Of a stretch of 40,904 bases of DNA, positions 842 through 39,388 are shown in pieces; within the stretch, counting starts at the first letter, position 1, and the number at the start of each line of letters is the position of its first letter. Both the position numbers and the translations under genes were made by a program. The notes beneath the pieces were generated by a model. It ran no database searches. It was given only the letters and a program-made list of their open reading frames with translations, and was not told the DNA's origin. The stretch is taken from positions 1 to 40,904 of the forward strand of contig JAGGVH010000037.1 of the NCBI GenBank assembly GCA_021158105.1, written 5' to 3'. This stretch comes from Candidatus Micrarchaeota archaeon (GTDB lineage: Archaea > Micrarchaeota > Micrarchaeia > Anstonellales > JAGGVH01).

Positions 842-892
842 GGTAGAGTTATAAGAAATGAATTTAAATGTTAATACTTATAAAATTAATTG

Positions 893-2074
893 ATGAGCAT
901 AAAAACCAAAATAATACTTGGTACAATGATAGGGGTGGCGTGCGTTGCAGGGATTTCGTCTATAACAACAATAAATACAAAAAAACCATTAGTCGACAGT
1001 CCTAAATATGTTAAAATAAAACAAAAAGAAATACGATTTGACATCTCAAAATATATTAAACCATTAAATAATAAACCAATATTAAAAGAATGGAGTTTAT
1101 ATGGGCATCTGCTTAATAAAGATAAAACTGATTTTGAGATATTGGTAAACACTGCAGGATGTAATATGATTGTTTTTGACGGGAAAGAATACTCATACCA
1201 TGACGTCATCGTTGGCAAGCTCAGAGGGCGTAAACACAGTAAATATGATTTTAGAACACCTAAAAGGAAGATGAGAGTAAGTCATGTAGTATTTAATCCC
1301 TGGTGGCATCCGCCACATAGGTGGTGGGCAAAAAAAGAAAAAGATATACCCCCGGGACCTGACAACCCATTAGGACCTGTGAAGATAATACTCAAAAATT
1401 CAAGCTACCGTATTCATGGGAACAATATGAAACTTTTTCATTCAGGACACATATCTCATGGATGTATAAGAATGAGGAATGATGAAGCGATCGAATTAGG
1501 AAAAAAAATCAATGGTGCACTTCATTATGGTAAAAAGGTCATTGTCAACATTGTTTACAAGCCAGTAGTGTTAGAAACATTTAATATTGAAAACACTTCT
1601 TTTATTTTTCTAACAGTATATCCTAATTACTATCATGAGAAAGTAAATTATAAAAAGGAGCTAAAAACACAGGTTGCATTGATACTAAAACATTCACAAG
1701 AAGATATATCATTAGATATCACACCATTATTAAAAAATTTAAGAAAACCGGGCACATATTTATACAGAGTAAAAAGAGGTCTGGACAAAATAGTTCTTGA
1801 AAAACAAGAGTATGCTCCATTATATGTTGTTAAGAATAGCAAAGATACGATTGATGTTTATGTAAACAGTGGAATGAGTTTTTCAACTAAAAGAAAAATC
1901 CTTAAGAGAGGATTGGGCGAAAGATATAACAATGAAATAGCAAACAATATCATTTATAAGAATGGAAAATACAGAATCATTTTCAACGGTGATTCAATCA
2001 ACATCACAACTTCTCAAAACAGTTTTTCCTGTTTCACAACAACCAACCCTGTTAATTTTTCGTATAATTTTTAA
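893..2074 (+). CDS. L,D-transpeptidase (YkuD) domain protein with an N-terminal signal anchor
   Basis: Catalytic motif HGNNMKLFHSGHISHGCIRMRNDEAIELG (HG...SHGC[IV]R[LM]) preceded by a signal-anchor helix. The track start at 890 is TTG, and an in-frame ATG sits at 893. Confidence 0.6.
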   Translation: MSIKTKIILGTMIGVACVAGISSITTINTKKPLVDSPKYVKIKQKEIRFDISKYIKPLNNKPILKEWSLYGHLLNKDKTDFEILVNTAGCNMIVFDGKEYSYHDVIVGKLRGRKHSKYDFRTPKRKMRVSHVVFNPWWHPPHRWWAKKEKDIPPGPDNPLGPVKIILKNSSYRIHGNNMKLFHSGHISHGCIRMRNDEAIELGKKINGALHYGKKVIVNIVYKPVVLETFNIENTSFIFLTVYPNYYHEKVNYKKELKTQVALILKHSQEDISLDITPLLKNLRKPGTYLYRVKRGLDKIVLEKQEYAPLYVVKNSKDTIDVYVNSGMSFSTKRKILKRGLGERYNNEIANNIIYKNGKYRIIFNGDSINITTSQNSFSCFTTTNPVNFSYNF

Positions 2075-5249: not shown

Positions 5250-5329
5250 TAAACATCACCTCATGTCCTTGACTAATATCTGTTATCTATTACACATTAT
5301 TTAAAAACCTAACCATTCAAATAAATGCT

Positions 5330-6037
5330 ATGAAATATAAATCTACTGTTAATTTCAATAAAAAAAATAAAAGAAAATCAAAAGGTAGAGATAATAAAAA
5401 GGAAAAGGTTGAAGAGATAGTATTAGATATAGCATTAAAGGTTGCAAAAGAAGGCAAAGGTGCGTTGTTTGTAATAGGAAACATTAAAAAAAACAAAGAT
5501 TATGTTTGTATGTACCCAAACCTGTTTGAAAAGGTTAGGATCAATATATTAAAAAAGAAAAGTATAATACCAATCATACATAACCTTTCAACACTTGACG
5601 GTGCAGTGATAATAAAACCTGACGGTACAATCGTTGCATACGGCGCCAGAATAAAAAATGTTAAGAATCTCCAAGGGTATGGCACGCGCCATGCTGCTGC
5701 ACGCGGGGTGTCATCATTAAACACATTAGCCATTGTAGCATCAGAAGAACATCACATAGTAAGAATTTTTAAGGATGGCAGTATAATAATGGAGATTAAC
5801 CCATACACTAAAACTGTTGAAAAAAATCTTAATAAGATCATAAGACTGTTAAATTATCCTGAGATGAGTGCAATGGTTGCGGGCGCATTGGGCTCTGCAG
5901 TATTGCTTGGCACAACTGCTGCCGGTGCAGTCACTGCCACAGCAGTCCTCCCGGGAGTAATGGTGTTCACAGGCGGTTATGTTGTATCGCGGAAGATTAT
6001 GAATTTCCTTGAAGAACTTCAGAAGAACAAATCATAG
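5330..6037 (+). CDS. Diadenylate cyclase (DAC/DisA_N) domain protein with C-terminal transmembrane segment
   Basis: DAC signatures GALFVIG, LDGAVIIKPDGTIVAYGARI, GTRHAAARGVS (the RHR region) and LAIVASEEHHIVRIFKDG are present. The N-terminus is Lys-rich and the C-terminus is hydrophobic (MSAMVAGALGSAVLLGTTAAGAVTATAVLPGVMVF). Confidence 0.75.
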   Translation: MKYKSTVNFNKKNKRKSKGRDNKKEKVEEIVLDIALKVAKEGKGALFVIGNIKKNKDYVCMYPNLFEKVRINILKKKSIIPIIHNLSTLDGAVIIKPDGTIVAYGARIKNVKNLQGYGTRHAAARGVSSLNTLAIVASEEHHIVRIFKDGSIIMEINPYTKTVEKNLNKIIRLLNYPEMSAMVAGALGSAVLLGTTAAGAVTATAVLPGVMVFTGGYVVSRKIMNFLEELQKNKS

Positions 6038-6054
6038 ATGTAGAGGTGAAATGA

Positions 6055-7140
6055 ATGAATATATATGAAGGTGATTACCGTAAACTTATGATAGTCCCAA
6101 TATTATTGGTATTGGTTGCATTATTCTTTATTCCAAACATTAAACTGGGCATAGATTTCCAAGGTGGCACAGTCATACGATTGTACACACAAAACCCTGT
6201 TAACATCACTTCATTATCCAACAGTCTAACATCAAACGGATTAAAACCAAGAGACATCAAACAGATAGATACTCAAATCGGCAATGTTATAGAAATTGAA
6301 CTTTCACAAGATGAAAAACTAACTCGCGCAGAGGAATTACGGGGCGAATTTTATACGCATTTTGACAGGTATTCATACCTTGAGAGTATACTTAACAACC
6401 CGTCACTCAACGAAAATGAAAGGAACAAATATCAAAAAGAATATGGTACATTAAAAGCAATGTTCAAAAATTATACAACTGAAATGTTTACAATGAGCAG
6501 TTATTCTGGAAGTTATGACGATGCCAACAGTATGCAAAAGATGTTTGATGCTGCTTACAATAAAGTCAAAGAAGATTATCAAGACAGGGTTTCATCAGCA
6601 ATAAACATCCAATACGATTCAATAGCAGTCAAATCAGTTTCACCGTCATTAGGGATTAAATTTATTGAACGCGCGGCATCTGCAGTAGTATGGGCATTAT
6701 TGTTATCAATGGCATTAGCATTTTTTGTGTTTAGGAAGATTGAAACCAGTTTAATCGTGTTCAGCGGTGCAATGGCAGACGTAATAATCGCAGCAGGCGG
6801 CATGGGACTGTTCAACATTCAGCTAACATTGTCATCATTTGCCGCACTTATAATGATGTTGGGGTTCTCGCTTGACACTGATATGCTATTGACTATGAGG
6901 TTGATTAAACAGAGGAAAGGCACGTTGAGGGAGGCTGCATGGAACACGCTTAAAACAGGGTCTACAATGAGCATAACTGACCTGATTTCGTTCAGTGTGC
7001 TTTTAATCCTGGGATACATAACACATCTTACTACATACTCTGAAATCGCATCAGTCGCAGTGATAGGATTATTAGGTGACATGATAGCAACATGGATGTT
7101 CAACGCTCCACTTATTATGCTGATGCTAAAAGAAAGGTGA
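6055..7140 (+). CDS. secF: Protein-export membrane protein SecF
   Basis: Carries the GIDFQGGT motif, a periplasmic domain and the C-terminal multi-TM SecD/SecF domain. A strong RBS (GAGGTGA) precedes it. At 361 aa it is the shorter paralog, with the archaeal order secF then secD. Confidence 0.75.
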   Translation: MNIYEGDYRKLMIVPILLVLVALFFIPNIKLGIDFQGGTVIRLYTQNPVNITSLSNSLTSNGLKPRDIKQIDTQIGNVIEIELSQDEKLTRAEELRGEFYTHFDRYSYLESILNNPSLNENERNKYQKEYGTLKAMFKNYTTEMFTMSSYSGSYDDANSMQKMFDAAYNKVKEDYQDRVSSAINIQYDSIAVKSVSPSLGIKFIERAASAVVWALLLSMALAFFVFRKIETSLIVFSGAMADVIIAAGGMGLFNIQLTLSSFAALIMMLGFSLDTDMLLTMRLIKQRKGTLREAAWNTLKTGSTMSITDLISFSVLLILGYITHLTTYSEIASVAVIGLLGDMIATWMFNAPLIMLMLKER

Positions 7141-7145
7141 TTATT

Positions 7146-8747
7146 ATGGACAACGCTACAAATATTAGAGTTTATGTGTTTGCAATCTTTGTATTGTTAG
7201 CTGTGCTTTCAATGGGATACAGGTTTTACACCAACGGCTCCCCAGTATTCTTAGGCATAGACTTTGCAGGTGGAACACGGATACCTATACTGTTGGAAAG
7301 GCCTGTTGACAGTGCAACAATGGAACAGATTGTCGACACGATCAAAAAGAGAGCATCGTCGTATGCATTGACAGAGGCCAGAGTACGGGCACTGGGCAGT
7401 GATGAATTGGTAGTAGAACTACCAAGCAGCAACGAGGAATATGTGTCAAAGGTTGAAGAGATATTGTCATCAAAAGGCGTATTCATTGGCGTGATAGACG
7501 GTACAATCGCAGTGTCTGGTGATGAGATATATCAAGGCACCATTCATGATACTACTGCACAAGAAGCTCCGGAACATCGCGGTAGCGGTCCCGGGTTTTG
7601 GTCGGTAGGGTTCTCAGTAACAGAGAAAGGCAAATCAATGATGGCAAACGCTGCATTCGGAAAACCGAACTATCCTGTTTATATGTTCCTTGACAGGCCA
7701 ACAAACGCAGTCATATTAATCCCAAAAGATGCGATGTGGAAGAATGTTGACGAATTAAAAGAAAAGTTTGGTGGCAAGCCAGTAACATTATCAGATGACA
7801 CATTATTGAACGCTCTAAGGGATGCAATGAAACTTGAAGGGGATGACATCCCAGTCTACATTTTAGAAGACAATAGTTCTTATCAAAACATCAAACCATT
7901 AAACAATAAAACTGTTGTCCTTGTTCCTGATACTGTTTCAGATGACATTGTTGAAAACTTGAAAAATAAAGGGTTTAAGGTTGAAAAGAAACCATACAAT
8001 GATTTTGTTCCAAATTATGAAGTCAACAGTGCACTGACATTTGTTGCTGACGAATGGCCGATTGCAGGACTAATGAATGCACCAGGGATATCACCTGACA
8101 TGACACATGGCACTGCAGGATATTCTTACACAATAAACGGTGAAGAAAAAGGCGGTTCAATCGCAGAATCAGTTGAACTTGCAAAACAGGAGAAGAAAAA
8201 GATTATGTCAATATTAAAAGGCGGTGCACTGCCTGTCCAGATCAGCTTAGGGAACAGAACTATAATCCCCGCACCGTTGGGTGGCAAGTTCTTAGAAATG
8301 AGCTTGTTCGGCGCGCTTGGTGTCATACTTGCAATTGCAGTTTTTGTGGGGATCAGGTATAAAAAACCTAAAGTGATAATAGGATTATTATTAACCAGCT
8401 TAGGCGAAGTTTTAATATTAGTATCAATAATCGGTGCGTTCTCGATAGATTTAGGTGCCATGGCAGGGATAATTGCAGCCATTGGTACGTCAGTGGATTC
8501 AGAAGTAGTAATAACCGATGAACTGCTAAGCAAAAAGGGCAACATAAAGGATAGAGTTGACAGAGCATTCCAGATTGTAATGACAACAGGAGGCATTGCA
8601 GTGATAACCATGCTCCCGTTACTGTTCTCAGGGTTAACTGAAATAATCGGATTCGCAATATCAACCATGACTGGCACATTGATTGGTATGTTTATAAGTA
8701 GGCATGCATATGCGTACTATGTAAGAAAAGTTGTATTAAAAGAATAA
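7146..8747 (+). CDS. secD: Protein-export membrane protein SecD
   Basis: Carries the GIDFAGGTR motif, a large extracytoplasmic domain and a C-terminal TM bundle. The start was moved to the internal ATG at 7146 (MDNATNIRV), which follows the RBS AGGTGA. The track ORF from 7092 would overlap secF by 49 nt. Confidence 0.75.
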   Translation: MDNATNIRVYVFAIFVLLAVLSMGYRFYTNGSPVFLGIDFAGGTRIPILLERPVDSATMEQIVDTIKKRASSYALTEARVRALGSDELVVELPSSNEEYVSKVEEILSSKGVFIGVIDGTIAVSGDEIYQGTIHDTTAQEAPEHRGSGPGFWSVGFSVTEKGKSMMANAAFGKPNYPVYMFLDRPTNAVILIPKDAMWKNVDELKEKFGGKPVTLSDDTLLNALRDAMKLEGDDIPVYILEDNSSYQNIKPLNNKTVVLVPDTVSDDIVENLKNKGFKVEKKPYNDFVPNYEVNSALTFVADEWPIAGLMNAPGISPDMTHGTAGYSYTINGEEKGGSIAESVELAKQEKKKIMSILKGGALPVQISLGNRTIIPAPLGGKFLEMSLFGALGVILAIAVFVGIRYKKPKVIIGLLLTSLGEVLILVSIIGAFSIDLGAMAGIIAAIGTSVDSEVVITDELLSKKGNIKDRVDRAFQIVMTTGGIAVITMLPLLFSGLTEIIGFAISTMTGTLIGMFISRHAYAYYVRKVVLKE

Positions 8748-8758
8748 TAGGTGAGAAT

Positions 8759-9190
8759 ATGGAACAACTGATAAATAAAAACAAAGAAAAAGAACAACTT
8801 ATCGAAACTGTAAAATCTAAGATTGCTGAGGTATGGAAGAGAAAAATAATTAGCGATGATGAACTGATAAAATTGTGCAACTCGTTCGGTATAGATGTCA
8901 ACCTTATAACAAGAACTTTAAGCGCAGAAGCTGAGATGAGCTGGTTCGTAGACCCTGAAGATTTACCAGAAATCAGAAGACCAAAAGATCCTACAAAACC
9001 GCCGCCGTTTGAATACATAACATTCAGAGAAGGTTATGATAACATAAAACTACTCTCAGATATAAATATAAAAATAAAAAGCGGAGATATCAATAACATC
9101 AAAAAACTTATCATCAAGCTTGATGATATACTAAAACAAGACAAACACAACATTGACATTACCAACCTTACACCAAAACCTGTTAAATAA
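8759..9190 (+). CDS. Hypothetical protein
   Basis: 143-aa ORF that closely follows secD. Charged, coiled-coil-like, no motif recognised. Confidence 0.4.
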   Translation: MEQLINKNKEKEQLIETVKSKIAEVWKRKIISDDELIKLCNSFGIDVNLITRTLSAEAEMSWFVDPEDLPEIRRPKDPTKPPPFEYITFREGYDNIKLLSDINIKIKSGDINNIKKLIIKLDDILKQDKHNIDITNLTPKPVK

Positions 9191-9194
9191 CCTT

Positions 9195-10625
9195 TTATGG
9201 TTGTTCTTCAATGTTATTGATTATCCTTATATATTCAGCAAGTTTTCTTGCCCATGTTGGCATCTTATCCATCGGAGTTAGCTTGCGACCCACTATTTTC
9301 TTGTGGGACTTCTGATACACAATCTTTAGAATGTTTAGATATTCATCACGTATATAATCAAAATCATCATCAGTTAGTTTGGTTAAGAGTTCTTTATAAA
9401 ACTCATACTTTTTGAGCTTGCCCCAAAAAACTCTATACCTTATCTTATCAAGCGGATTGTTGAACCTCCTTAAATAAGGTGCACCATAATAATCTGAAGG
9501 TTTGATTTCATCACTGCCTAAAGCGTTCTTAATATCTTTTTCAAGAGTAGGGATTTCGTTTGACAAGAACTTTATCATACCTAAGTATACAGTATTAACA
9601 AACTCTTTCTCGGTTAAATACGGCAACTGCTTACCTATTGCATAAATCCCTTTATATGATTTCTTCAGTGCTTCCCTCATAACAGATGGCACATACCATT
9701 CATCAGAATTACCATCTGTCTTGTAGTAACCTCTATACAAACCGTCTGTGACCATTTTAGCCATGATATCCATTAGTGGCACAAAATCAATGCTGTATGC
9801 TTCATAATCCTGCTCATACATCTTCTCATCATACAACATTTCAGCTTCTGCTCTCCATGTGAAGAACGTATCATACTCTTCTTTAAACTGTTCTTCTGGT
9901 GCAGTATACAATTCACCAATGTTTTCCCACCTCTTAAAAATAATGCTGTTATTGATTACTTTCTTGTCAGATATGATTACCTTACGGCCTAACACGTCTT
10001 TTCCCCCAACATATTTCCATGGGAATTTGTAAGGCGGGTTTTTAACATCAAACAATGAGTCATACCCTTCCAATACCCTGTTATCATGGTATTCTGGGAT
10101 AACATGGATTAATGTTTTGGGGAATTTGGTAATCTTTACTCTATCAGGAGAGTATAACATAAAAGTAACTGTCTCTAAAAATAAAACCCTTTCCTGCTCA
10201 CGTTTTAACTCATCACCTGTTACCTTATCAAGCATCATCTTCTGCAGAGTTTCGATCTCATACCTTCGAATGTCAAGAATCATATCATACATAAGGTTAA
10301 ACGTCATACGAATAGCCTTGTCCGTCTGTTCAGGATTTAATCTTTTAAATTCACTTTTTAATCTTTCACTAACATCAGACAAATAATCTTCTGGAGATGC
10401 AGAATCTTCATTCTGGCAAACATTCTTTAGATACCTCCTAAAACCCTCTGCCTCATGAACAATTACAGGAAACACCTTTTCAACAGTGTCAGGATCTCTT
10501 ATAAACTTATTAACCATCTCAACCCATGGATTGAACGCATATGACTTAAAAATGTTCTCATTTTTTGATTTATCTGTGTCTGATTGCATATCACGAACAT
10601 CTTTTTCATTTGGTTTCGGTTTCAT
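9195..10625 (-). CDS. Hypothetical protein (476 aa), downstream partner of the 1011-aa gene
   Basis: Long ORF on the same strand, 19 bp downstream of the 10645..13680 gene, so a likely operon. Aromatic-rich and soluble-looking, no recognisable motif. Confidence 0.5.
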   Translation of the reverse strand: MKPKPNEKDVRDMQSDTDKSKNENIFKSYAFNPWVEMVNKFIRDPDTVEKVFPVIVHEAEGFRRYLKNVCQNEDSASPEDYLSDVSERLKSEFKRLNPEQTDKAIRMTFNLMYDMILDIRRYEIETLQKMMLDKVTGDELKREQERVLFLETVTFMLYSPDRVKITKFPKTLIHVIPEYHDNRVLEGYDSLFDVKNPPYKFPWKYVGGKDVLGRKVIISDKKVINNSIIFKRWENIGELYTAPEEQFKEEYDTFFTWRAEAEMLYDEKMYEQDYEAYSIDFVPLMDIMAKMVTDGLYRGYYKTDGNSDEWYVPSVMREALKKSYKGIYAIGKQLPYLTEKEFVNTVYLGMIKFLSNEIPTLEKDIKNALGSDEIKPSDYYGAPYLRRFNNPLDKIRYRVFWGKLKKYEFYKELLTKLTDDDFDYIRDEYLNILKIVYQKSHKKIVGRKLTPMDKMPTWARKLAEYIRIINNIEEQP

Positions 10626-10644
10626 ACAACCACCTCATACTTAC

Positions 10645-13600
10645 TCAACGGTTTGGATTGGCATATGTTTTAGTCGTTTTCAACATCGAAGACCTCTTGG
10701 CACCAGTCTGTTCAACCATCAACGCAGAACGGTTAACTAATCTTAACCCATGCAATGGATTAATGCCATACGGCTGGACCTTACTTATCTCACCTAACCC
10801 TTGATATGATTTCAGTGCATCAACCACAGATTTACCTTCACTATTAGTAAAATATGGCAAGTCACTCATCCGAATCTTTTTTATAGACCTTATTTCTTCT
10901 AAATTAAACCCAGAATTCTTTAAGTATTTCACTGCAGATTCCATAACATCTGACCTGGACGTAGAACTTGAATTGTAATATGTGATAACCCTCATAGCCG
11001 CCCGCTCAGCAGGGTCAACCACATGTCCCAAAACAGTTCTTGTTTCTTCAACAGTAGTCACAGGAGTAATCTTAAGTTCTGCACTAATCCCATTAAGATT
11101 CTTGTTCATGTTGTACAACCATTGTTTGAAATTTGCTGAAATATCAACATTCTGTGAAGAGGAGATTATATATGTACTCGGTCCAACCCTCACTACCTCT
11201 GCTGATGACAAAAGGCCGTCAGGCATACTGTTCTCAGTAATTGCTATCCGATAATTACCCATATCATGTCCCACCAAATTATAATGGATTATGTCAAGCT
11301 TGTTAGCTTTATCAACTCTTAACAATCCTTTGCCCTGGTTTTCAATGGACAGACCTGAGAAAGTTTTCTTCAATTCAGGACTTTTGACATAATCGTTAAC
11401 ATCAACAACATAAACCTTCCTACCTTGTTTAACCATTTTTGCAGCATACCTTTCAGCTTCAGATTGTTTCATTGAACCGAGTGACCGGTTGTTCACTACA
11501 CTACTCTTCCCAAAAATTATAGTGCTCAATTGTTCTGCCTTTTGAGAACTCTGTTCAGCTGCACCTATCAGTTTATTGATTCCTTCATTCTTGACAATAT
11601 AATATGCATTATCTACTGAAAGCATATTTTTACCTTCCCAATGCACCCTTAAAAAGTCATCAACGGTTTGTTCTGAGATTATACCCTTCTTAACGATAGG
11701 CCTTAACGACTTTCTAACTGCATCTTCAAAACCCATAAAATGTTTATTATAAACCTGGTTAAACACGTCGTCTGGTGCAGTAGTAATAAAATAAAGTTCG
11801 TCACCACCTTGAAGGTTGGCCATGGTCTTATAACCCATTCCTTCAATTTCCTTTCTAACACGGCCAAACATCTTTTTATATTCTAACAAAACTGCATCTC
11901 CAAACCTTTTTGAAGTAGTATTATTAATAGTACTAGTATTGGCCTTGTCAAAAGAATAGATGTATACTTTATCAATGTTAGGGTCAGCATTAAGCTTTTC
12001 AAGAAATTTTGTTGTATTCTTTCCCAACTGGGAATTATTAACACTTGGAACCCGCATTTCAGATGTAAAATAATCTATCATCCTGTACTCTGCGACCCCG
12101 GCAACAGCTGTACCTGCCAACATTGCTGACTGGATAACAATTGGCATGACAGGACTTTTTCCTTCTTTTACTAATTCTCCATACACCTCAGCGTTCTTTG
12201 CAGTACCGCCATAATACAACACACCCATACCTGCCATTTCTGTGCCAGACAACCCGATCTGTAATCCATAACTTAACGTGCCAGACATTCGTGTGGCAGC
12301 ACTCAACGCGCCAATTCCTGAACGTGCCACTGGCGCAAAACTGACAATCATCGTGCCAAGCTCCAACTGGGTGTCTGCAGATGCCAAATCAAAGGTATTA
12401 GTCCTGATTTGTGTGTAAAGTTTTGATGCGCTCTCCAGAGCAAAATAACTCGATCCTATATAAATCAATCCTACGCCCACACTTGCCCCGACACCTGTCG
12501 CACTTAACGCTGCACCGCCCACTATCGCTCCAGCGGCCAATACATCATCAGCAGTCATCTCCTTCTTCTTCTCAACAAACGTACCATCACGAAACCCATA
12601 AACACCCGGTGCAAACCGTGACACATCAACAAGTCGTTTTACTAAATTGTTAGCAACTTCATTCTTATTGTTCTCACCAACATAATCCTCCAATGCCTCA
12701 CCAGTCATAGGGTTGACTGCAATAATCTTTGTAACATTTTCTCGTACTGGTGCCATGACACCAAGCCGCCCCAATTCATTTGGCGACCTTTCAACTTTCT
12801 TAACTGTCACTTCCCTCAACAGCACTGGAACTGTTGACAATGACAATGCAGTGCCATCAGGATTTTTAGTAAGATATCTAATAGGATAAACAATTATCCC
12901 CTTCTCCTTTAAATATTCTGGGCGTATACATCTATTTGTCAAATCACTAATATCTTCCTTGCTTAAACCCAAGTTCTCTAAAGCCTTTATGTATTTTTCC
13001 TGTGAAATTAATGAAGCATCAATCAGATTAATCTGTGCAACCGAAGATTTTAAATCCTCTGAAGAAGGCGTATAACCTTTTGTTAGAACATTATCCTTAA
13101 CCTCATTAAATTTCTTATCAACTTCCTGCCTGATCTGACCGATAATTTCGTTTTCAGTATTAGTACTGACCTGTTCAGTGTAATGAAATTTTGCTTGGAT
13201 CTTAACAGGCCTAATATTAGAAATCTCACTAATCACATCAGGATTAAGATTAATCTTTGTTTTAGCAGACATTGCAATCTCATTCAGTGCATTAGATACA
13301 TCATTAGCGAATTCGGTATCATTACGAACAACAGAAGCATTGTTTATTCTCTCGTTAAAATTCTCAATCTTATTTGTTATGTCATTATGACTACCAAGAT
13401 AACTTTTGATTGTATTCAAATCCCTCATCATCATTTCAAACTCGTCGTTACTGATGTCTACCTTATTCCTAAACAAACTGTTCAGAGCATCATCAAACGT
13501 CAACCGGTTTGTAGGAGTGGCATACTTTGTAATATCGATTGATACAGTTTGATTACTGGCGGCCCATTCTTTCTTCCTTTGCATTGCACGTTCTTGAATC

Positions 13601-13680
13601 TTTTGGGCCAACTCTTGCAGTCTCTTGGTTGCATTTTCAACCTCAGCTTTATCCTTTTCCATCAAAAACGGTCCTGACAT
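10645..13680 (-). CDS. Large (1011 aa) membrane-associated protein with N-terminal coiled coil, central Gly/Ala-rich glycine-zipper segment, possible GGDEF-like palm region
   Basis: ATG at 13680. Residues 1-300 are heptad and charged (coiled-coil-like). The central stretch AAGAIVGGAALSATGVGASVGVGLIYIG...GLQIGLSGTEMAGMGVLYYGG has GxxxG repeats. Downstream, SFDKAN...FGDAVLLEYKKMFGRV...ANLQGGDELYFIT weakly resembles the GGDEF A-site region. Confidence 0.55.
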   Translation of the reverse strand: MSGPFLMEKDKAEVENATKRLQELAQKIQERAMQRKKEWAASNQTVSIDITKYATPTNRLTFDDALNSLFRNKVDISNDEFEMMMRDLNTIKSYLGSHNDITNKIENFNERINNASVVRNDTEFANDVSNALNEIAMSAKTKINLNPDVISEISNIRPVKIQAKFHYTEQVSTNTENEIIGQIRQEVDKKFNEVKDNVLTKGYTPSSEDLKSSVAQINLIDASLISQEKYIKALENLGLSKEDISDLTNRCIRPEYLKEKGIIVYPIRYLTKNPDGTALSLSTVPVLLREVTVKKVERSPNELGRLGVMAPVRENVTKIIAVNPMTGEALEDYVGENNKNEVANNLVKRLVDVSRFAPGVYGFRDGTFVEKKKEMTADDVLAAGAIVGGAALSATGVGASVGVGLIYIGSSYFALESASKLYTQIRTNTFDLASADTQLELGTMIVSFAPVARSGIGALSAATRMSGTLSYGLQIGLSGTEMAGMGVLYYGGTAKNAEVYGELVKEGKSPVMPIVIQSAMLAGTAVAGVAEYRMIDYFTSEMRVPSVNNSQLGKNTTKFLEKLNADPNIDKVYIYSFDKANTSTINNTTSKRFGDAVLLEYKKMFGRVRKEIEGMGYKTMANLQGGDELYFITTAPDDVFNQVYNKHFMGFEDAVRKSLRPIVKKGIISEQTVDDFLRVHWEGKNMLSVDNAYYIVKNEGINKLIGAAEQSSQKAEQLSTIIFGKSSVVNNRSLGSMKQSEAERYAAKMVKQGRKVYVVDVNDYVKSPELKKTFSGLSIENQGKGLLRVDKANKLDIIHYNLVGHDMGNYRIAITENSMPDGLLSSAEVVRVGPSTYIISSSQNVDISANFKQWLYNMNKNLNGISAELKITPVTTVEETRTVLGHVVDPAERAAMRVITYYNSSSTSRSDVMESAVKYLKNSGFNLEEIRSIKKIRMSDLPYFTNSEGKSVVDALKSYQGLGEISKVQPYGINPLHGLRLVNRSALMVEQTGAKRSSMLKTTKTYANPNR

Positions 13681-13734
13681 GATTAAATTTAGTAAACCAC
13701 GATTTTAAATAACTTTCTTTTAAAATTTGTTATC

Positions 13735-14265
13735 ATGAAACAAAACAAAAGTCATGACCTACAACACAAAAACCTTAAACACAAAACAAAAAGTGCACCA
13801 AAACCAAAAATTATCACACATGACAATAAAAAAATTCATGAATCAGTCGGGGCAGTCATAATAAGAAACAAAAAGGTTTTGATGATTGACCGTGCTAATT
13901 ATCCATACGGATGGGCGTGCCCTGCTGGTCATGTCGATGCAGGAGAAAAACCTGACACTGCCGTTGTAAGAGAAGTAAAAGAAGAGACAGGGTTAAACAT
14001 AACATTTGCAAAAGAAGTCATGACAGAGTTTGTTGAATGGAACGATTGTGTTTACGGCGTCAAAGGACACTTGTGGCATGTGTACATTGCAACAGGGGAA
14101 GGTGAAGTGAAAATCAACAAAGAAGTTAAAGACTGGGCATGGAAAACATTAACTGAGATTGAACAGTTGTCATCAAATAATAAACTCGAGCCTGTGTGGG
14201 CTTACTGGTTTAAAAAGATTAGAAATGTAAGAGTTTTAGATTTTATTGATTCATTATTGATTTAA
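13735..14265 (+). CDS. NUDIX hydrolase
   Basis: Nudix box GHVDAGEKPDTAVVREVKEETGL (Gx5Ex7REUxEExGU). It has a basic N-terminal extension and is divergent from the large gene, with starts 54 bp apart. Confidence 0.7.
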   Translation: MKQNKSHDLQHKNLKHKTKSAPKPKIITHDNKKIHESVGAVIIRNKKVLMIDRANYPYGWACPAGHVDAGEKPDTAVVREVKEETGLNITFAKEVMTEFVEWNDCVYGVKGHLWHVYIATGEGEVKINKEVKDWAWKTLTEIEQLSSNNKLEPVWAYWFKKIRNVRVLDFIDSLLI

Positions 14266-15819
14266 TTGATTTAACAATTCTAAAAACAACTTTTTATTTT
14301 GGTCATCTAACCCTGAAGAATAAAGATTACTTTTAAATTCGGATATATCATGGGAAGTAAAACCTAAACCTATATTATTTTTGTGTTTTATGCTTAACTT
14401 CAGAAATTTCATAGAATTATCATAGTCATCAAACAAAAAATTTAACTTTGATAATGTAAAATAATCTGGAACGCTCCAACTATCAAGGTCATAATCAGTA
14501 CTAACATTATTGTTTGCAAAGGCTACAATTTCTTTTAATGATGGCTTTTGATTAAGTGAATCCAACCTTTCAGCAATAGGCGTAACCTCTCCAGCGATGT
14601 TAATATATTTAGCTGACATAATAGCCAATTCTCCTGCAGTGCTCATTTTCCCATGTTTCGCATAAGATTGAGCGGCAAAATAGGCAAGATAACTAAACAT
14701 AGAAAAGCTATCAAAAATATCCTTTTTCCTTGACAACATACCTTCCATTCCTCTCCCAATACTTTCTTCTCTATGAGCAGAATAATAGTTGATTTCTTCA
14801 TACATATATTTTAGGTCAAGCAACCGGTATTCTATTTCTTTAGATAATGGATTATCAAAATTATTATGATTTTCATGCGAAACCATCTTGTCAATAATTC
14901 TTTTAACATAATCCAAATTCTCATTAGTCATATCTTTTGAGAAATTATGTAAAATTATCAAAAAATAGTAAGAATACTTAAACCCGTCCATATCAACATA
15001 CATGCCGTGAGATGTAGAATCAATTGAGTAATGGTATTCACCAACCATTTCTAAAAATTTATCCTCTTCATTTATATAATACTCAATAGAATCCAATGAT
15101 GAAGATGTATATAAATCAAAATATTCATCCATGACTAACCTTGTAAGGTAACTTAATTGATTTGGGTCTTTGATTGTAGGAATAAAACGTTTACAAAGTT
15201 TAATAAATTCATTACCAGAATATTTTTCTATAAAAGGAACTGCAATGTTAAAATACATACTATCATTAGTTTTCTCGCTCAACATATACAAATATTCTAT
15301 AATTATAGAATTAGTTCTTTCAATAAATGATGGATCTTCTAATTTTGATAATGAGGTTGTGTCCAACTGCGACCTGATAACATTAAATTGCTTATCAACC
15401 TGTTCCACGTCTTCATAAGGTAAAACCGGAAGAAGGTTCTCAATATTGCTCATATAGTTTTCATACTTTGACGTCCATGTCAATAAATAATAAATAATCG
15501 ATGCATTCTTTTTATCTTTATTTGATATCCCATCCGCATATTCGACCAAAGGAGATGAATCACCAGTTTTAAGATAATAGTCTATCAAAAATTCACCTAA
15601 AAGTAAATCTTCTGTTGAAAGACTATTACTTTTTACAATAAAATTATTATCATCCAGTAAAGGTTTGAATTCTTTTATAAAGTATGTTGTATTTTTATGA
15701 ATAGTTTCTTCCAATGGTGCACCTGCTACTGTTGAAAAAGTCAACATTGCACTGCTTAAACCTAATATCCTCATACCTTTTTTAAACCGAACCATATTAT
15801 ACATTATGTCCACAAACAT
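14254..15819 (-). CDS. Secreted hypothetical protein (signal peptide)
   Basis: 521-aa ORF. MRILGLSSAMLTFSTVAGAPLEE looks like a signal peptide, and the true start may be that internal Met. Asn/Tyr-rich, no motif recognised. Confidence 0.5.
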   Translation of the reverse strand: MFVDIMYNMVRFKKGMRILGLSSAMLTFSTVAGAPLEETIHKNTTYFIKEFKPLLDDNNFIVKSNSLSTEDLLLGEFLIDYYLKTGDSSPLVEYADGISNKDKKNASIIYYLLTWTSKYENYMSNIENLLPVLPYEDVEQVDKQFNVIRSQLDTTSLSKLEDPSFIERTNSIIIEYLYMLSEKTNDSMYFNIAVPFIEKYSGNEFIKLCKRFIPTIKDPNQLSYLTRLVMDEYFDLYTSSSLDSIEYYINEEDKFLEMVGEYHYSIDSTSHGMYVDMDGFKYSYYFLIILHNFSKDMTNENLDYVKRIIDKMVSHENHNNFDNPLSKEIEYRLLDLKYMYEEINYYSAHREESIGRGMEGMLSRKKDIFDSFSMFSYLAYFAAQSYAKHGKMSTAGELAIMSAKYINIAGEVTPIAERLDSLNQKPSLKEIVAFANNNVSTDYDLDSWSVPDYFTLSKLNFLFDDYDNSMKFLKLSIKHKNNIGLGFTSHDISEFKSNLYSSGLDDQNKKLFLELLNQLNQ

Positions 15820-17917: not shown

Positions 17918-18946
17918 TTATATCTTAAACCTTAGCACTGCCACCAAACCACCAAAACCTTTCAACTTCCTGCCAGAATCACTGTCAGACGAGAATAATA
18001 CATAATTAACATTTTTCTTGTCGGCCATGGTGAGTATTTGTTGTACATCTTCCCTTTTTATAAGTTCTTCGTGAACCAAAAGCCTGTCAATTGCACCGTA
18101 ATCCATTGCAAGCTTAACCTTCTCAATACCATAAACACATAACCCGTCATCCTTGCCTATGTGCATCATTGCTTCATTCAACAATCGCGCCTCTTCAGCA
18201 AGCTGATGCTCTTTAACAACATTTGACAATGAATTCTTGACAACTTCATTAACCCCTGCCCTTCCGGAAACAGAAGTATTAACAAATAACGTCCGTTCTA
18301 AGAGTTGGTTATTATTCTTTTCTATATATTTTTTTAATGCGTCTTTTGTAAACCCCGGTCCTCCTACTATAACCTTGCCTTCAGGGAAAACTGTTTCAAT
18401 CATCTTAACAACCTCACTTATGTATTTTATGAAATTATCAGAATAGTTAGGGTCACGCTTTGATGTGTGAGAATAGACCTCTCCAACATCTTCAGTGCCA
18501 TAAGCCAACACTTTAGAAAAAACTGCAAACTCATCATCAAGGACTACTATCCCCAGTTTAACCTTTTGCGAATGCGACAATGCCGTTTTTATTATATTCA
18601 GATCACTGGAATTAAACTCCTTCTTAATTTTAATACTGTTATTAGGTTTAACTTCAATAGTATGGTACTGCCCGACCTGAACAAACTCTTCTGGTCTTCC
18701 AGATGCAATCCTCCCAGTGACACGGAGGCTGACACCGTACTTTGAAAATTCAACCTTCTCAGCTTCAATTGTTATGTACACCGGCTTGCGTTCGGCGGGT
18801 GCATCAGGCCTGGGCCTGAACAATCGCAAACTCTTACCGCTAACCATAGCCCCAGGCGTTATAACCTTTTCTAAATACCACAAATCCTCAACACCTTCTG
18901 GGGTTGCTAACAATGTCTGTTCTTTCTTGTTGATCTGTGCCTTCAT
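17918..18946 (-). CDS. pelA: Protein pelota (Dom34 homolog), mRNA surveillance
   Basis: The N-terminal EDLWYLEKVITPGAMV motif, overall length and domain order match archaeal Pelota. The eRF1-type GGQ motif is absent. The central region is VIVGGPGFTKDALKKY. Confidence 0.8.
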   Translation of the reverse strand: MKAQINKKEQTLLATPEGVEDLWYLEKVITPGAMVSGKSLRLFRPRPDAPAERKPVYITIEAEKVEFSKYGVSLRVTGRIASGRPEEFVQVGQYHTIEVKPNNSIKIKKEFNSSDLNIIKTALSHSQKVKLGIVVLDDEFAVFSKVLAYGTEDVGEVYSHTSKRDPNYSDNFIKYISEVVKMIETVFPEGKVIVGGPGFTKDALKKYIEKNNNQLLERTLFVNTSVSGRAGVNEVVKNSLSNVVKEHQLAEEARLLNEAMMHIGKDDGLCVYGIEKVKLAMDYGAIDRLLVHEELIKREDVQQILTMADKKNVNYVLFSSDSDSGRKLKGFGGLVAVLRFKI

Positions 18947-27263: not shown

Positions 27264-28508
27264 TTAATACAACAATCCAAAAACATAAAGCGGAATTTCA
27301 TTATCTTTGAACATAATGGTTTCCTTTACTAAATAACCATTCTTTTTATTTTTAAGTTGTGCCCACCTCTTTGCCTCCCCGCCTATTTCAAATATATTCT
27401 CCCCTATGATGTAGTCAGGAGTTCTCCGTTCTACTCCGGTTTTCAGATATTTTGCATTACCAACATGCTGTATAAAAAAATCTTCCCTTATCCCACCAAG
27501 GGAAGGAGTTATACCATAACTTTTACACAATGCACTCCTGAAAGATAAAGGCATTAAAAGTTTATCTTCACTTCTTATTGCTTTGTGCCCAACACCTTCT
27601 GGAGGTATGACATATAATAATCCTGAATATGACAACATCTTTACAATTTCCTGAGCAACCTTTGTGCCTCTATCAATACTGTTTGCAATACGTGTATAAC
27701 TTACCTCTCCAGGTGGAGAACTTGCAATAAATTTTACTACTTTAAACACTGAATCAATATAATGCACATCAACCTCCCTCAAAGATTGCAGGTCATACCT
27801 AACAATCCTTTCCAAGATATTAATGTAAACGTCAGGTTTATCATTAAAAAAACAAGCAGGAAGTGCATTCTGCTGTGTGTAAATCCCAAATTCATTAATG
27901 TAAGGCATAATCTGTTTAACGATTTTTCTAAGTTTGTTTGGAGCAAGTATATCTGAAAGTTCTATTCTATTTATACCCTTCTTGACTTTGAAATATAAGT
28001 ATTCCCTGAAAGATAATGGTTTGAGTTTAAATATTGTTGCACGCCTGGACAATTCTGATCCTTTTGTTTTAAGCGCAACTGCTGAAGAACCAGTTATGAC
28101 AATATTCGAATGTGTTTCATCATAAAATATTTTAATATCCTTTTCCCAGTCAGGAATAGAATGAATTTCATCTATAAGAAAAGTAGTATAGCCCATAATC
28201 TCAAAATAATGCAATATATCCAACAAATTAACACCATACTTAAGAATGATGTCGCCATTCAGATATATAGATTTTTCAATAGAATATAATAAAGTTGAAA
28301 GGATAGTCGTCTTGCCAACACCTCTCAGCCCAGATATAATATACAACCCTTTTTTAGATTTAATTTGCGAGATAATTTCTATGCTAGAATACCTGAGGTT
28401 ATCTACTCTTGCCTGTTCTGCAGTTTTCATTGACATTGTCATTATATTAGTAAACAAAATTTCCTGCATATGTATTTTAAGAACAATAAGGTTTATATTT
28501 GTTTCCAT
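27264..28508 (-). CDS. AAA+ ATPase, COG1373 family (AAA_14 + DUF4143)
   Basis: Walker A YIISGLRGVGKTTILSTL and Walker B FLIDEIH are present, with a DUF4143-like C-terminal half. It is paralogous to 39421..40623. Confidence 0.65.
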   Translation of the reverse strand: METNINLIVLKIHMQEILFTNIMTMSMKTAEQARVDNLRYSSIEIISQIKSKKGLYIISGLRGVGKTTILSTLLYSIEKSIYLNGDIILKYGVNLLDILHYFEIMGYTTFLIDEIHSIPDWEKDIKIFYDETHSNIVITGSSAVALKTKGSELSRRATIFKLKPLSFREYLYFKVKKGINRIELSDILAPNKLRKIVKQIMPYINEFGIYTQQNALPACFFNDKPDVYINILERIVRYDLQSLREVDVHYIDSVFKVVKFIASSPPGEVSYTRIANSIDRGTKVAQEIVKMLSYSGLLYVIPPEGVGHKAIRSEDKLLMPLSFRSALCKSYGITPSLGGIREDFFIQHVGNAKYLKTGVERRTPDYIIGENIFEIGGEAKRWAQLKNKKNGYLVKETIMFKDNEIPLYVFGLLY

Positions 28509-30055: not shown

Positions 30056-31987
<1,932 letters not shown>

Positions 31988-32006
31988 TGCGGTGATGTAT
32001 AGGTGA

Positions 32007-34397
32007 TTGATAATGGAGATAATAAAACCTGTTGAAAAAGAGATGAAAGAATCTTATATTGATTATTCTATGAGCGTAATCGTAGGCCGCGCACTTCCTG
32101 ATGTGAGGGACGGATTAAAACCTGTCCACCGCAGGATATTGTATGCAATGTATTCAATGGGTAACGTTCACAATAAACCGTACAAAAAGAGTGCGAGGAT
32201 TGTCGGCGAAGTGTTGGGTAAATACCATCCGCATGGCGATACTGCAGTGTATGATTCCATGGTCAGAATGGCACAGGAATTCTCGATGCGTTATGTATTG
32301 ATAGACGGTCAGGGCAACTTCGGGTCGGTTGACGGTGATTCTGCGGCTGCGATGAGGTATACTGAAGCGCGGTTGTCACAACTCGGAGAAAGCATGTTAA
32401 AAAACATTGAAAAGGATACGATTGATTTTATTCCAAACTTTGACGGTACATTGAACGAGCCGACAGTGCTGCCCACAAGAATACCAAACCTTATCATTAA
32501 CGGGTCATCAGGAATCGCGGTCGGTATGGCAACCAATATGTTGCCCCATAACTTGAACGAAGTGATTGACGCGTTGATACTGTTGATTGACAACCCAAAC
32601 AGCAGTCTTGATGACATAATAAAACATTTGCCAGGGCCTGACTTTCCCACTGGCGGAATAATAATGGGGAGAAGAGGAATATTAAGCGCTTATGCTCATG
32701 GCAGGGGCAGTATAACAGTAAGGGCCAAGACTGAGATTGTCGAGACAAAGAAAGGAGCACAGATCAGGATAACAGAACTACCTTACCAAACCAATAAGGC
32801 CAACATGATTTCTAAGATTGCAACACTTGTCAAGAATAAAAAACTTGAAGGGATAAGGGACATCAAGGACATGTCAGACCGAAGAGGGTTATTGGTCATT
32901 ATTGATATTGAAAAAGGGTATGATGCAAACGTTGTGCTCAATAATTTATACAAGCATACCGACCTTGAAAAGAATTTTGGAGTTATTAACTTAGCACTTG
33001 TTAATGGCGTGCCGCGGCTGCTGAACATGAAACAATTGTTGACAAAGTTTATTGAATTCCGAAGAGAAGTCGTGCTTAGAAGGACAAAGTTTGACCTTGC
33101 GAAGGCTGAAGAGAGAAGACATATCGTCCAAGGATTAATCATAGCAGTTAACAATATTGATGACACTGTCAGGATTGTTAAGCAGGCAAACGACCCGAAA
33201 GATGCAGCAGAACAGTTAATGGCACAGTTTGGGATAACTGATAAGCAGGCAAAAGCTATACTGGACATGAAACTTCAGAGGTTGACGGGACTGGAAAGGA
33301 ATAAACTTGACAGTGAACTTAAAGAACTTGAAGACAAGATTAGAGAGTATAAGAACATTATTGAAAATGATAATGTCTTGATGAATGTGATAAAAGAAGA
33401 GCTTGTTGAAGTTAAAAATAAATTTGGCGATAAGAGAAGGACTGAAATTTCAGAGGATTTTGAAGAAGTTATCGAAGATGACGAACTTGTAAATGATGAA
33501 GCAGTTGTTATAATATTAACACAGAACGGTTATGTCAAACGTGTTCCGCTTGATGAATACAAGGCGCAGGGCAGAGGAGGAAAAGGAGTCATAGGAATTA
33601 AAACAAAAGAGGACATGGTCAAAGACATCATAACTGCTAAGAACAGGGACTGGTTGTTAGTGTTCACTGACAACGGCAAAGTATACTGGTTAAAAACGTA
33701 CAGGATACCTGAGATGGGACGGTATGCGCAGGGAAGGCACATCAAAAACCTGTTACAGATTGGAGATGCTAACGTTCGCGCTGTCATCCCGGTCAGGGAA
33801 TGGGACGGTTACCTGTTCACTGTAACAGAAAAAGGCGTTGTAAAAAGGACAAGGTTGTCAGCGTACAGCCACCCGCGGGCGACAGGCATAATCGCATTAA
33901 AACTTAAAGAGGGTGATAGAGTTGTCGACGTTAAGAAGACAAGCGGTACTGATGACGTGATAATAATAACACACAATGGCATGGCAATACGGTTTGATGA
34001 GAACGATGCGCGGGAGATCGGACGGACCGGGCAAGGCGTGAGAGGCATCAGATTACGCGGTGATGACAAAGTTGTGTCACTGTGCATTGCAAAGGGCCAG
34101 ATATTAACGATTACTGAACAGGGTTACGGCAAACGGACAAACGTTGACAATTATAGGAAGCAACACAGGGGCGGCCACGGAGTCATCGGGATTAAAACTG
34201 TAAAAGGCAGAGTTGTGTCAGCGCATAATGTTTCTGATGATGACGAGGTTATACTGTTAAGTTCATCAGGCAGGATGGTCAGGATACCTGTGAATTCAAT
34301 AAGAGAAGTAGGAAGGAACACAATCGGTGTAAGATTGATGAGGTTGGACGAAGGAGAAAACGTTGTAGCCAGTACAGTGATCAAAACCAGTAAGTAA
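32007..34397 (+). CDS. gyrA: DNA gyrase subunit A
   Basis: [29 protein letters not shown], active-site [10 protein letters not shown] and a C-terminal beta-pinwheel repeat region. It follows gyrB by 19 bp. Confidence 0.9.
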
Positions 34398-38612: not shown

Positions 38613-39263
38613 TTATGTCAATTCATACTTTTCAACTGGAAATTCGTTAAACATAAACCGGTTCTTTGGCACATCTAAAACATAAACAGGTTTGCCATAC
38701 TTTAACCCGAATTTTAAAGTCCATAAACTTCCACTGTTTGGTCTTGCCTCAACAATTATAACCTTATCAGCAAGCTGGACCATTAATTCATTCCTCTGGA
38801 CAAAATGATACTTTTCAGTTTGTACCCAGTCATCAAACTGGGACAGGATTAAAGCGTTATGCTCAAGTGCATGCTTAAACATACAGATGTTTCCTTGCGG
38901 CGTAGGCCTAGTGATCGGCACTGGGAAAACAATTATTTGTCTGCCCAAGTATACAACAGTCATCTTTATAACTTCAAAATCTATCCCTATCGCACCGCCA
39001 GTGATTATTATGTTTGATTGCTTGATTTCGTTCTCTGCAATATCAACAGCTGCAAGACGTCCGCTAAAACTTGCACGCCTACTTCCTGCGATCAATGTTT
39101 TTGGAGAATCTTCAAGAATGTTAATGTTGCCAAGATAATTAACCTTGACAGTCCTGTTATCACATCTTAAACGTATTTTGCCCATTGGCATAAAACGTAT
39201 AAATCTGTTCCAATCATTGATTATATGGCTGTGCGAACGAGTCTGTGAATAAGACATAAACAT
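38613..39263 (-). CDS. DprA/Smf-like Rossmann-fold (SLOG-type) protein
   Basis: IIITGGAIGIDFEVIKMTV...GRQIIVFPV...NALILSQFD resembles the DprA core (GxAxGID...H..AL...IAV...ISE). The track start at 39347 is TTG. The start was set at ATG 39263/39257, immediately downstream of a TATA-like element, so the transcript is probably leaderless. Confidence 0.45.
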   Translation of the reverse strand: MFMSYSQTRSHSHIINDWNRFIRFMPMGKIRLRCDNRTVKVNYLGNINILEDSPKTLIAGSRRASFSGRLAAVDIAENEIKQSNIIITGGAIGIDFEVIKMTVVYLGRQIIVFPVPITRPTPQGNICMFKHALEHNALILSQFDDWVQTEKYHFVQRNELMVQLADKVIIVEARPNSGSLWTLKFGLKYGKPVYVLDVPKNRFMFNEFPVEKYELT

Positions 39264-39307
39264 GTTATGTGTGAAAAAGTTTAAAAGTATTAGCACATCG
39301 GTTGGGG
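39264..39307 (-). promoter_or_regulatory. Promoter element (TATA-like) nearly identical to 19793..19832
   Basis: Plus strand GTTATGTGTGAAAAAGTTTAAAAGTATTAG...TTGGGG shares TTATGTGTGAAAA[T/A]GTTTAAAA[A/G]TATT with the copy upstream of gene 18973..19758. Confidence 0.4.
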
Positions 39308-39323
39308 CATAGATATAAAACTT

Positions 39324-39388
39324 GTATTTTGTAAAATCATTGGACAAAATACATTACATTTTGTAAAACTGTTGAACAAAATACAAAA
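39324..39388. repeat. Direct repeat copy 1: two tandem ~30-bp palindromic units (CATTTTGT-n11-ACAAAATR)
   Basis: ATTTTGTAAAATCATTGGACAAAATACAT plus CATTTTGTAAAACTGTTGAACAAAATACAA. It sits between the divergent DprA-like and ATPase genes. Confidence 0.6.

Follow-up and report, generated by a model that had tools for sequence, protein, structure and literature searches.

A rare two-gene module of a Micrarchaeota archaeon pairs a divergent GGDEF-like protein with an orphan partner

What does the largest gene on a 40,904-bp archaeal contig do, given that both it and the gene that follows it are annotated as hypothetical? The contig (here "the window," meaning the whole stretch of DNA analyzed) carries the NCBI label Candidatus Micrarchaeota (DPANN), and the organism is an archaeon judging from the neighboring genes (Taw1, eRF1, Rrp4, Trm1, and others). 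Both open reading frames (ORFs) lie on the minus strand: gene 1, at 10645–13680, encodes a 1011-aa protein (MCD6227474.1), and gene 2, at 9195–10625, encodes a 476-aa partner (MCD6227473.1), each an NCBI "hypothetical protein" from Ca. Micrarchaeota. An earlier note on this DNA had already placed the two genes here, 19 bp apart, and named the first as the largest in the window; the ORF list and a reading of the sequence agree with it on all of these points. The reading we favor, at a probability of roughly 55%, is that the 1011-aa protein is a lineage-specific, probably membrane-associated GGDEF-type nucleotide cyclase and that the partner is a co-transcribed regulator or receptor. The analyses support the gene structure, the conservation and rarity of the pair, a GGDEF fold with a conserved signature, and a degenerate second unit; catalysis, product, membrane anchoring, and the partner's role are what we infer beyond these.

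Is the resemblance to GGDEF domains more than a chance spacing of residues? The earlier note had described a region loosely matching this family, quoting FDKAN (at 577), FGDAVLLEY (at 593), and LQGGDELYF (at 623). The region proved to be a GGDEF-fold domain, which we call Palm A, spanning residues ~545–705 (11566–12048, minus strand) with the signature D578, N586, G594-D595, and G625-G626-D627-E628. An AlphaFold2 (AF2) model built from a three-sequence alignment had a mean predicted local distance difference test score (pLDDT) of 52.7 overall and of 70–84 across residues ~550–700. Here, its helices (549–565, 582–588, 591–614, 637–664, and 689–699) and strands (571–579, 619–624, 628–633, and 679–688) follow the order a0-b1-a1-a2-b2-b3-a3-b4-a4 of GGDEF/class III cyclase palms. 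D578 falls at the end of b1, and the GGDE motif (residues 625–628; 11797–11808, minus strand) sits between strands 619–624 and 628–633, so that both alignment and model place it in the predicted b2-b3 hairpin, which is where the GG(D/E)EF motif is located in characterized domains (PMC7288161). Among structures in the PDB, Foldseek recovered a Geobacter GGDEF domain at a probability of 0.90. The viral library BFVD yielded only weak palm-fold hits, the highest-probability multidomain one being a phage AdrA-like cyclase.

Profile comparisons place the same residues in the same register. When a profile of residues 540–700 was searched against PDB sequences, three of the six weak hits were Thermotoga maritima diguanylate cyclase (DGC) chains; at E ~0.5 these are not significant alone, and their alignments paired D578, N586, GD594–595, and GGDE625–628 with catalytic positions. 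Aligned by hhalign to a reference of five Escherichia coli K-12 GGDEF domains (DgcZ, DgcF, DgcJ, DgcP, and CdgI), Palm A matched over 123 columns in the same catalytic register (P = 0.003), with a score of 25.2 that exceeded all 200 column-shuffled nulls (maximum 22.8). Although the homologs are only 31–41% identical, none of the eight signature positions varies among them, against a domain-wide invariance of 24% (hypergeometric P = 6e-6). These comparisons support the cautious cyclase suggestion of the earlier note. D578, N586, and D595 align with the metal-binding Asp at the end of b1, the guanine-contacting Asn, and the guanine-contacting Asp, respectively (D327, N335, and D344 of PleD), and all three are invariant, as is G625-G626-D627-E628 in the three homologs. 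The earlier remark that the usual metal-binding DxD was not evident is superseded, as D578 lines up with the metal-binding Asp that comes first in beta1 of GGDEF domains. In PleD, D327 and E370 bind Mg2+, N335 and D344 bind guanine, and D327, N335, and D344 are essential for activity; replacement of D344 by Ser marks the cGAMP-making Hypr subclass (PMC7288161). Because D595 supplies an Asp at the D344 position, a guanine substrate is favored. By alignment, Palm A keeps all of the residues that canonical DGCs use for Mg2+ (D578 and D627/E628) and for guanine (N586 and D595), and its catalytic competence is plausible.

The same protein contains a second unit, Palm B, which is absent from the earlier note. 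Recognized from hhalign, a table of residues, and the model, it covers residues ~786–905 (10966–11325, minus strand). Its match to the E. coli reference alignment was again outside the null distribution (P = 0.0016; score 27.6 vs. a maximum of 21.5 for 200 shuffles), pairing YN-VGH--G[D/N] with IND-YGH--GD and RV-P-EYII with R-GGEEF-II. N801, H805, and G808 are invariant and position 809 is D or N; the beta1 Asp is missing (N, N, and E in the three homologs), and GPSTY, SPTEY, or KPNEY stands in place of GG[DE]EF. With these residues, Palm B cannot be expected to bind metal in the canonical way. The AF2 model shows a partial b2-b3-a3-b4 pattern for it, and an internal-duplication comparison found no detectable similarity between Palm A and Palm B. 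This tandem of a putatively active and a degenerate palm would explain why two-palm Cas10/Csm1 chains occupied the top ten places in the Foldseek search of the PDB (E 4e-4 to 7e-3; probability ~0.9).

Are the two genes a unit, and how widely do they occur? A word-indexed search of 5.8 billion clusters returned a single homolog of the big protein (P0001, 38% identity) and, for the partner, P0003 (42% identity) and P0002, which is the window protein itself. Against 1.84 billion representatives, an exhaustive HMMER profile search retrieved five sequences, of which two are fragments. They comprise P0001; another full-length homolog, P0004 (31% identity); a piece of the window protein; and P0006 and P0007 (the latter a fragment), which have only the N-terminal ~110 residues in common with the window protein. 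A further profile search added nothing to the word-indexed matches. No additional loci came from GTDB genomes, JGI metagenomes, or viral contigs, which were scanned with a DNA pattern that had been validated on every known locus of the family; the viral contig scans likewise revealed no relatives in viruses or mobile elements. The family, with its three full-length lineages in ~15 billion proteins, is real yet extremely rare.

At all three loci found, the partner lies directly downstream of the big gene in the same orientation. The P0001 locus (L001) has the order Taw1-NUDIX-big-partner-...-SecD-SecF, which matches that of the window, and this synteny is kept although the big proteins are just 38% identical. 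The P0004 locus (L002–L004) has another neighborhood, a ribosomal-protein cluster; there, a same-strand 512-aa ORF directly after the big gene is a partner homolog (26% identity, E = 1e-34). The adjacency thus holds at three loci in two genomic contexts, having outlasted the divergence of the sequences as well as a move to a new neighborhood. The pair is a conserved two-gene module of a Micrarchaeota archaeon. The operon proposed in the earlier note is supported by this adjacency.

Their junction has a recurrent form. The intergenic gaps measure 19, 24, and 59 bp, and in each case GAGGTG(G/A) or AGGTGA stands 4 nt before the partner's start codon; in the window, this is a Shine-Dalgarno-like GAGGTGG (10630–10636, minus strand) read in the sequence inside the 19-bp gap, 4 nt 5' of the ATG. 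A bacterial promoter/terminator scan found no terminator-like site between the two genes; its promoter calls were at chance level and its terminators numbered zero. Upstream of gene 1, a TATA-like ATTTAAAA (13703–13710, minus strand; sequence read) lies ~26 nt 5' of the ATG, a position compatible with a leaderless archaeal mRNA, though as a motif in AT-rich DNA it is weak evidence; L002 has a similar TATA-like TTTAAAT ~24 nt before the ATG of its big gene.

Neither protein matched any Pfam, NCBIfam, PHROG, or PADLOC model, nor any PDB sequence when the full proteins were searched, and three-sequence profiles cropped to residues 200–376, 376–540, 735–905, and 906–1011, together with a partner profile, gave no PDB hit either. 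The partner, in which the earlier note had recognized no motifs, stays as blank under these searches: it is mostly alpha-helical (AF2 pLDDT 47) and has no hydrophobic segment (Kyte–Doolittle [KD] maximum 0.92). All members of the family are "hypothetical." The catalytic fold is already known; what has not been described is the family with its tandem architecture, further domains, and partner, and a literature search combining Micrarchaeota with GGDEF or c-di-GMP turned up no relevant paper. Two other identities were rejected: a phage tape-measure-like or prophage origin, by the housekeeping synteny and the lack of PHROG hits and viral relatives, and an SMC, Rad50, or S-layer protein, by the lack of any sequence or fold match. 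The earlier note had named SMC-like and S-layer families as outcomes that would undo its proposal, and neither emerged.

Could the module instead belong to antiviral defense? A Cas10/mCpol-like oligoadenylate synthase serving Panoptes- or type-III-like signaling, with the 476-aa protein as its effector, would account for the Cas10/Csm1 chains at the head of the Foldseek list, for one chain with an apparently active and a degenerate palm, and for the two-gene arrangement; known mCpol systems consist of a small cyclase and an effector (PMC12657218 and PMC12657230). Yet GGDEF profiles align with each of the two units, the guanine-contacting N and D included, and the setting is one of housekeeping genes (SecDF, NUDIX, and Taw1, or ribosomal proteins) that is syntenic between genomes whose proteins are 38% identical. 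Nor is there a PADLOC hit, an HD domain, a CRISPR array, a CARF or SAVED domain, or a transmembrane effector; the partner's lack of a hydrophobic segment and the absence of viral or mobile relatives point the same way. We hold this to be the least probable of all the readings considered here.

What is the Gly/Ala/Ser-rich hydrophobic block that precedes Palm A? Assessed by hydropathy, motif counts, and invariance, it covers residues ~376–540 (12061–12555, minus strand) and is the most conserved region of the 1011-aa protein, with 28% of its positions invariant and with polar motifs (TFDLAS..TQ.ELG, NAE, and EGK) inside it. A 36-aa run without D, E, K, R, N, Q, or H occupies residues 380–415, and such a run occurs in two of the three homologs. 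The earlier note had called the segment dense in GxxxG and the whole a membrane protein. Its composition bears out the first claim in part (G+A+S make up 37% of residues 401–500, and 378–535 contains 21 small-xxx-small pairs), but strict GxxxG occurs just three times (384, 398, and 472). The second claim is likewise borne out only in part: KD-19 hydropathy peaks at 1.68–1.75 in the 1011-aa protein, which is marginal, and the segments that qualify are not the same from one of the three homologs to another. Confidence in the model is low throughout the block (pLDDT < 50), and it matches nothing in the PDB or Pfam, including Pfam's glycine-zipper and pore families. No N-terminal hydrophobic signal precedes it, and the first 375 aa are hydrophilic. 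Given the missing signal peptide and a downstream domain that requires NTPs, both terminal regions are expected to be cytoplasmic. The block could form one or two membrane hairpins, and the 1011-aa protein is probably membrane-associated.

The earlier note went further, likening the block to pore or membrane-insertion modules and suggesting a role at the cell surface or in contact with a host. Under such a reading, the palm region would be incidental. DPANN archaea rely on host contact, the block is the best-conserved part of the protein and contains a long polar-free run, and P0006, which shares the N-terminal module, also has a Gly/Ala-rich hydrophobic block. The proposal does not fit the missing signal peptide, the scarcity of strict GxxxG, the marginal and variable hydropathy, the low model confidence, or the failure to match any glycine-zipper or pore family; moreover, the flanking GGDEF domains need cytoplasmic NTPs, so the bulk of the protein would be cytoplasmic. 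Our analyses of the 1011-aa protein produced no evidence for a pore or surface function, and we consider a glycine-zipper machine very unlikely.

The remaining parts of the protein are orphans. An N-terminal helical module (residues ~1–110; 13351–13680, minus strand), delimited by the exhaustive profile search, BLASTP, and the model, recurs at the N-terminus of P0006, a Micrarchaeota protein of 976 aa that is unrelated elsewhere (BLASTP, 36% identity across 107 aa, E = 7e-14), and in the fragment P0007. The long N-terminal coiled coil of the earlier note survives as helices but not as one coil, for the model has separate helices at 8–42, 62–73, 78–95, and 99–113, the longest being the first at ~35 aa. 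A beta-rich domain follows at residues ~255–375 (12556–12918, minus strand), with AF2 strands at 262–272, 279–297, 312–322, 329–334, 359–362, and 368–371, a pLDDT of 65–85 in parts, and no PDB sequence-profile hit. The C-terminal tail (residues 906–1011; 10648–10965, minus strand) has a conserved AV.YLK..GF.L motif and low model confidence.

P0006 itself (MCC7569955.1, Ca. Micrarchaeota; L005:10001–12931) has its own Gly/Ala-rich polar-free run near the C-terminus (827–863), which is not homologous to the block of the window family, and no partner-like gene was found beside it. Its residues 203–326 gave a weak, nonsignificant GGDEF-like alignment (hhalign P = 0.08) through "DVLTGSNFSR," "EDVDFILKAISEAHESFDG," and "LSEAEFIVFF." P0006 may point to a wider Micrarchaeota superfamily whose members have this N-terminal module in common.

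How firmly does the evidence point to a working cyclase? A number of results weigh against one. The Pfam GGDEF model (PF00990) did not hit the full protein at E up to 1, it also missed the domain cropped from each of the three homologs when E was relaxed to 10, and the hhalign probability was only 10–18%. The fifth motif residue is L, I, or A instead of the Phe of GG[DE]EF, and the Arg two residues before GG is absent. Equivalents of the phosphate-binding K442 and R446 in a4 of PleD are not conserved: K697 occurs in the window protein only (VDNAYYIVKNEG), with M or V in the homologs, and no Arg equivalent is conserved. The RxxD inhibitory site (I-site) is absent, and an invariant GYKT stands there (residues 616–619; 11824–11835, minus strand). 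The structural evidence is a three-sequence AF2 model in which 581–600 and 768–817 are poorly modeled, the hydropathy of the block is equivocal, as noted above, and the partner's sequence offers no functional clue. Finally, no PilZ, EAL, or HD-GYP gene and no c-di-GMP riboswitch (Rfam) was found in the 40-kb window or the related loci.

Much of this would also be expected if both GGDEF-like units were catalytically dead and the protein served as a nucleotide-binding receptor or scaffold, relaying to the partner or the membrane block in the manner of LapD, FimX, PelD, or GdpP-type proteins. Degenerate GGDEF domains do take on other roles (PMC7288161), and the divergence from the Pfam model, the lost motif Phe and Arg, and the unconserved K442/R446 equivalents would all fit such a role. 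What speaks for catalysis is that Palm A keeps, without variation among the homologs, the equivalents of D327, N335, and D344 as well as both acidic positions of GGDE, while Palm B of the same protein shows what genuine degeneration looks like. A dead receptor is, to our minds, a doubtful explanation, if the most credible of those competing with a cyclase.

How would a cyclase of this kind work? In the mechanism we propose, the Gly/Ala-rich block would hold the protein at or in the cytoplasmic membrane, leaving the N-terminal 375 aa and the palms both on the cytoplasmic side, where the N-terminal helical and beta domains would govern oligomerization or activity. Palm A would bind GTP-Mg2+ and condense two nucleotides. 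It might do so as ordinary diguanylate cyclases do, two Palm A domains of a dimer making c-di-GMP; or Palm A and Palm B might form a pseudo-dimer in cis, with Palm B as a noncatalytic nucleotide site as in Cas10 and class III cyclases. The translationally linked, helical 476-aa partner would act as regulator or receptor of the output.

A bolder version, which we regard as rather unlikely, is a second messenger private to Micrarchaeota: the membrane-tethered cis pair of active and degenerate palms, arranged as in Cas10, would make a signal read by the 476-aa partner, itself a new receptor family, and might couple membrane or host-contact state to the physiology of an obligate episymbiont. The signal of such a pathway need not be canonical c-di-GMP; it might be, for example, a linear or mixed dinucleotide.

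The DAC gene mentioned in the earlier note is indeed present: a diadenylate cyclase domain (E = 2.4e-15) is encoded at 5330–6037 (plus strand), immediately 5' of SecF/SecD, so that a gene for a c-di-AMP synthase lies on this contig ~3 kb from the GGDEF-like one.

What else surrounds the pair? Neighbors in the window include SecF/SecD, the DAC-domain protein, AlaRS, NUDIX, a Taw1-type radical-SAM wyosine enzyme, an eRF1-domain protein (eRF1_1/2/3; 17918–18946), Rrp4, Trm1, GyrA/B, and DprA. The SecF and SecD ORFs (6055–8747, plus strand) overlap by 49 bp (7092–7140), which suggests either translational coupling or a later true SecD start. A 143-aa orphan (8759–9190, plus strand) converges on the partner gene with 4 bp between the stop codons; it is conserved in L001 (7314–7838; 39% identity over the first 64 aa, E = 8e-13) and was not seen beside the pair in L002. 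Between NUDIX and Taw1 lies a 521-aa orphan ORF (14254–15819, minus strand) with an N-terminal hydrophobic signal-like segment and no Pfam hit; in L001, NUDIX and Taw1 are adjacent without it. Farther away are a 394-aa ORF (890–2074, plus strand) with a YkuD L,D-transpeptidase catalytic domain (E = 3.5e-14), a peptidoglycan cross-linking type of enzyme unexpected in an archaeon; two paralogous AAA_14 (DUF4143-type) ATPase genes (27264–28508, minus strand, and 39421–40623, plus strand); bacterial-type DNA gyrase genes gyrB and gyrA (30062–34397, plus strand); and DprA (38613–39347). At L002, a 322-aa protein encoded after the pair (5250–6218) bears a Por_Secre_tail domain (E = 2.3e-11), the C-terminal sorting signal of the type IX secretion system (T9SS), which is a bacterial-type signal on an archaeal contig. 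An Rfam tRNA hit there (11790–11911) is 122 nt long, exceeding standard tRNA length and suggesting an intron-containing archaeal tRNA.

What would a cyclase here mean? GGDEF/c-di-GMP signaling is regarded as essentially bacterial. The locus indicates that a GGDEF-type catalytic core can sit below the detection limit of Pfam in "hypothetical" proteins, and it presents a new architecture, in which a tandem of a putatively active and a degenerate palm is joined to a conserved Gly/Ala-rich block and an orphan N-terminal region and comes with an obligate partner that is itself an orphan. An active protein would offer a concrete, testable entry to cyclic-dinucleotide signaling in DPANN archaea, beside the c-di-AMP gene, and would be a natural bridge between GGDEF homodimers and the double palms that Cas10-type proteins have in cis. 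The extreme rarity of the family limits its general importance. A review (PMC8646023) describes GGDEF proteins as nearly missing from archaea: hits at the BLAST level come mostly from Asgard and DPANN genomes, and none has been characterized.

How does the protein compare with known systems? Like Cas10/Csm1 and mCpol, it appears to have two GGDEF-like palms per polypeptide of which only one has an intact acidic motif; Cas10/Csm1 chains are its top Foldseek matches in the PDB, and mCpol systems also have a single partner gene alongside. Unlike them, it has no recognized HD domain, zinc finger, or D4 domain, it lacks a CRISPR or defense context, and its palms come in the order active first, degenerate second. 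With GGDEF DGCs (PF00990; PleD, DgcZ, DgcB, and T. maritima TM1788) it shares the placement of GG[DE]E in the b2-b3 hairpin, the register of the Asp that closes b1 and of the guanine-contacting Asn and Asp, and a helical, possibly membrane-bound N-terminal input region ahead of the catalytic part, a layout seen in many bacterial DGCs. It departs from them in escaping the Pfam model, in its GGDE[L/I/A] motif, in lacking both the I-site and the conserved K/R phosphate clamp, and in carrying a second, degenerate copy in cis; the window family is, moreover, archaeal (Micrarchaeota), confined to a handful of genomes, and its nonpalm domains and partner are orphans. Compared with the sensor blocks of bacterial membrane-sensor GGDEF proteins (MASE-, MHYT-, and 5TM-type), its own block is Gly/Ala-rich and marginally hydrophobic, matches no sensor family in sequence, and comes after 375 aa that look cytoplasmic, its insertion into the membrane being putative. 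Yet in both, a conserved hydrophobic block stands directly before the cytoplasmic GGDEF domain, an analogy that suggests that a membrane-derived input controls the cyclase.

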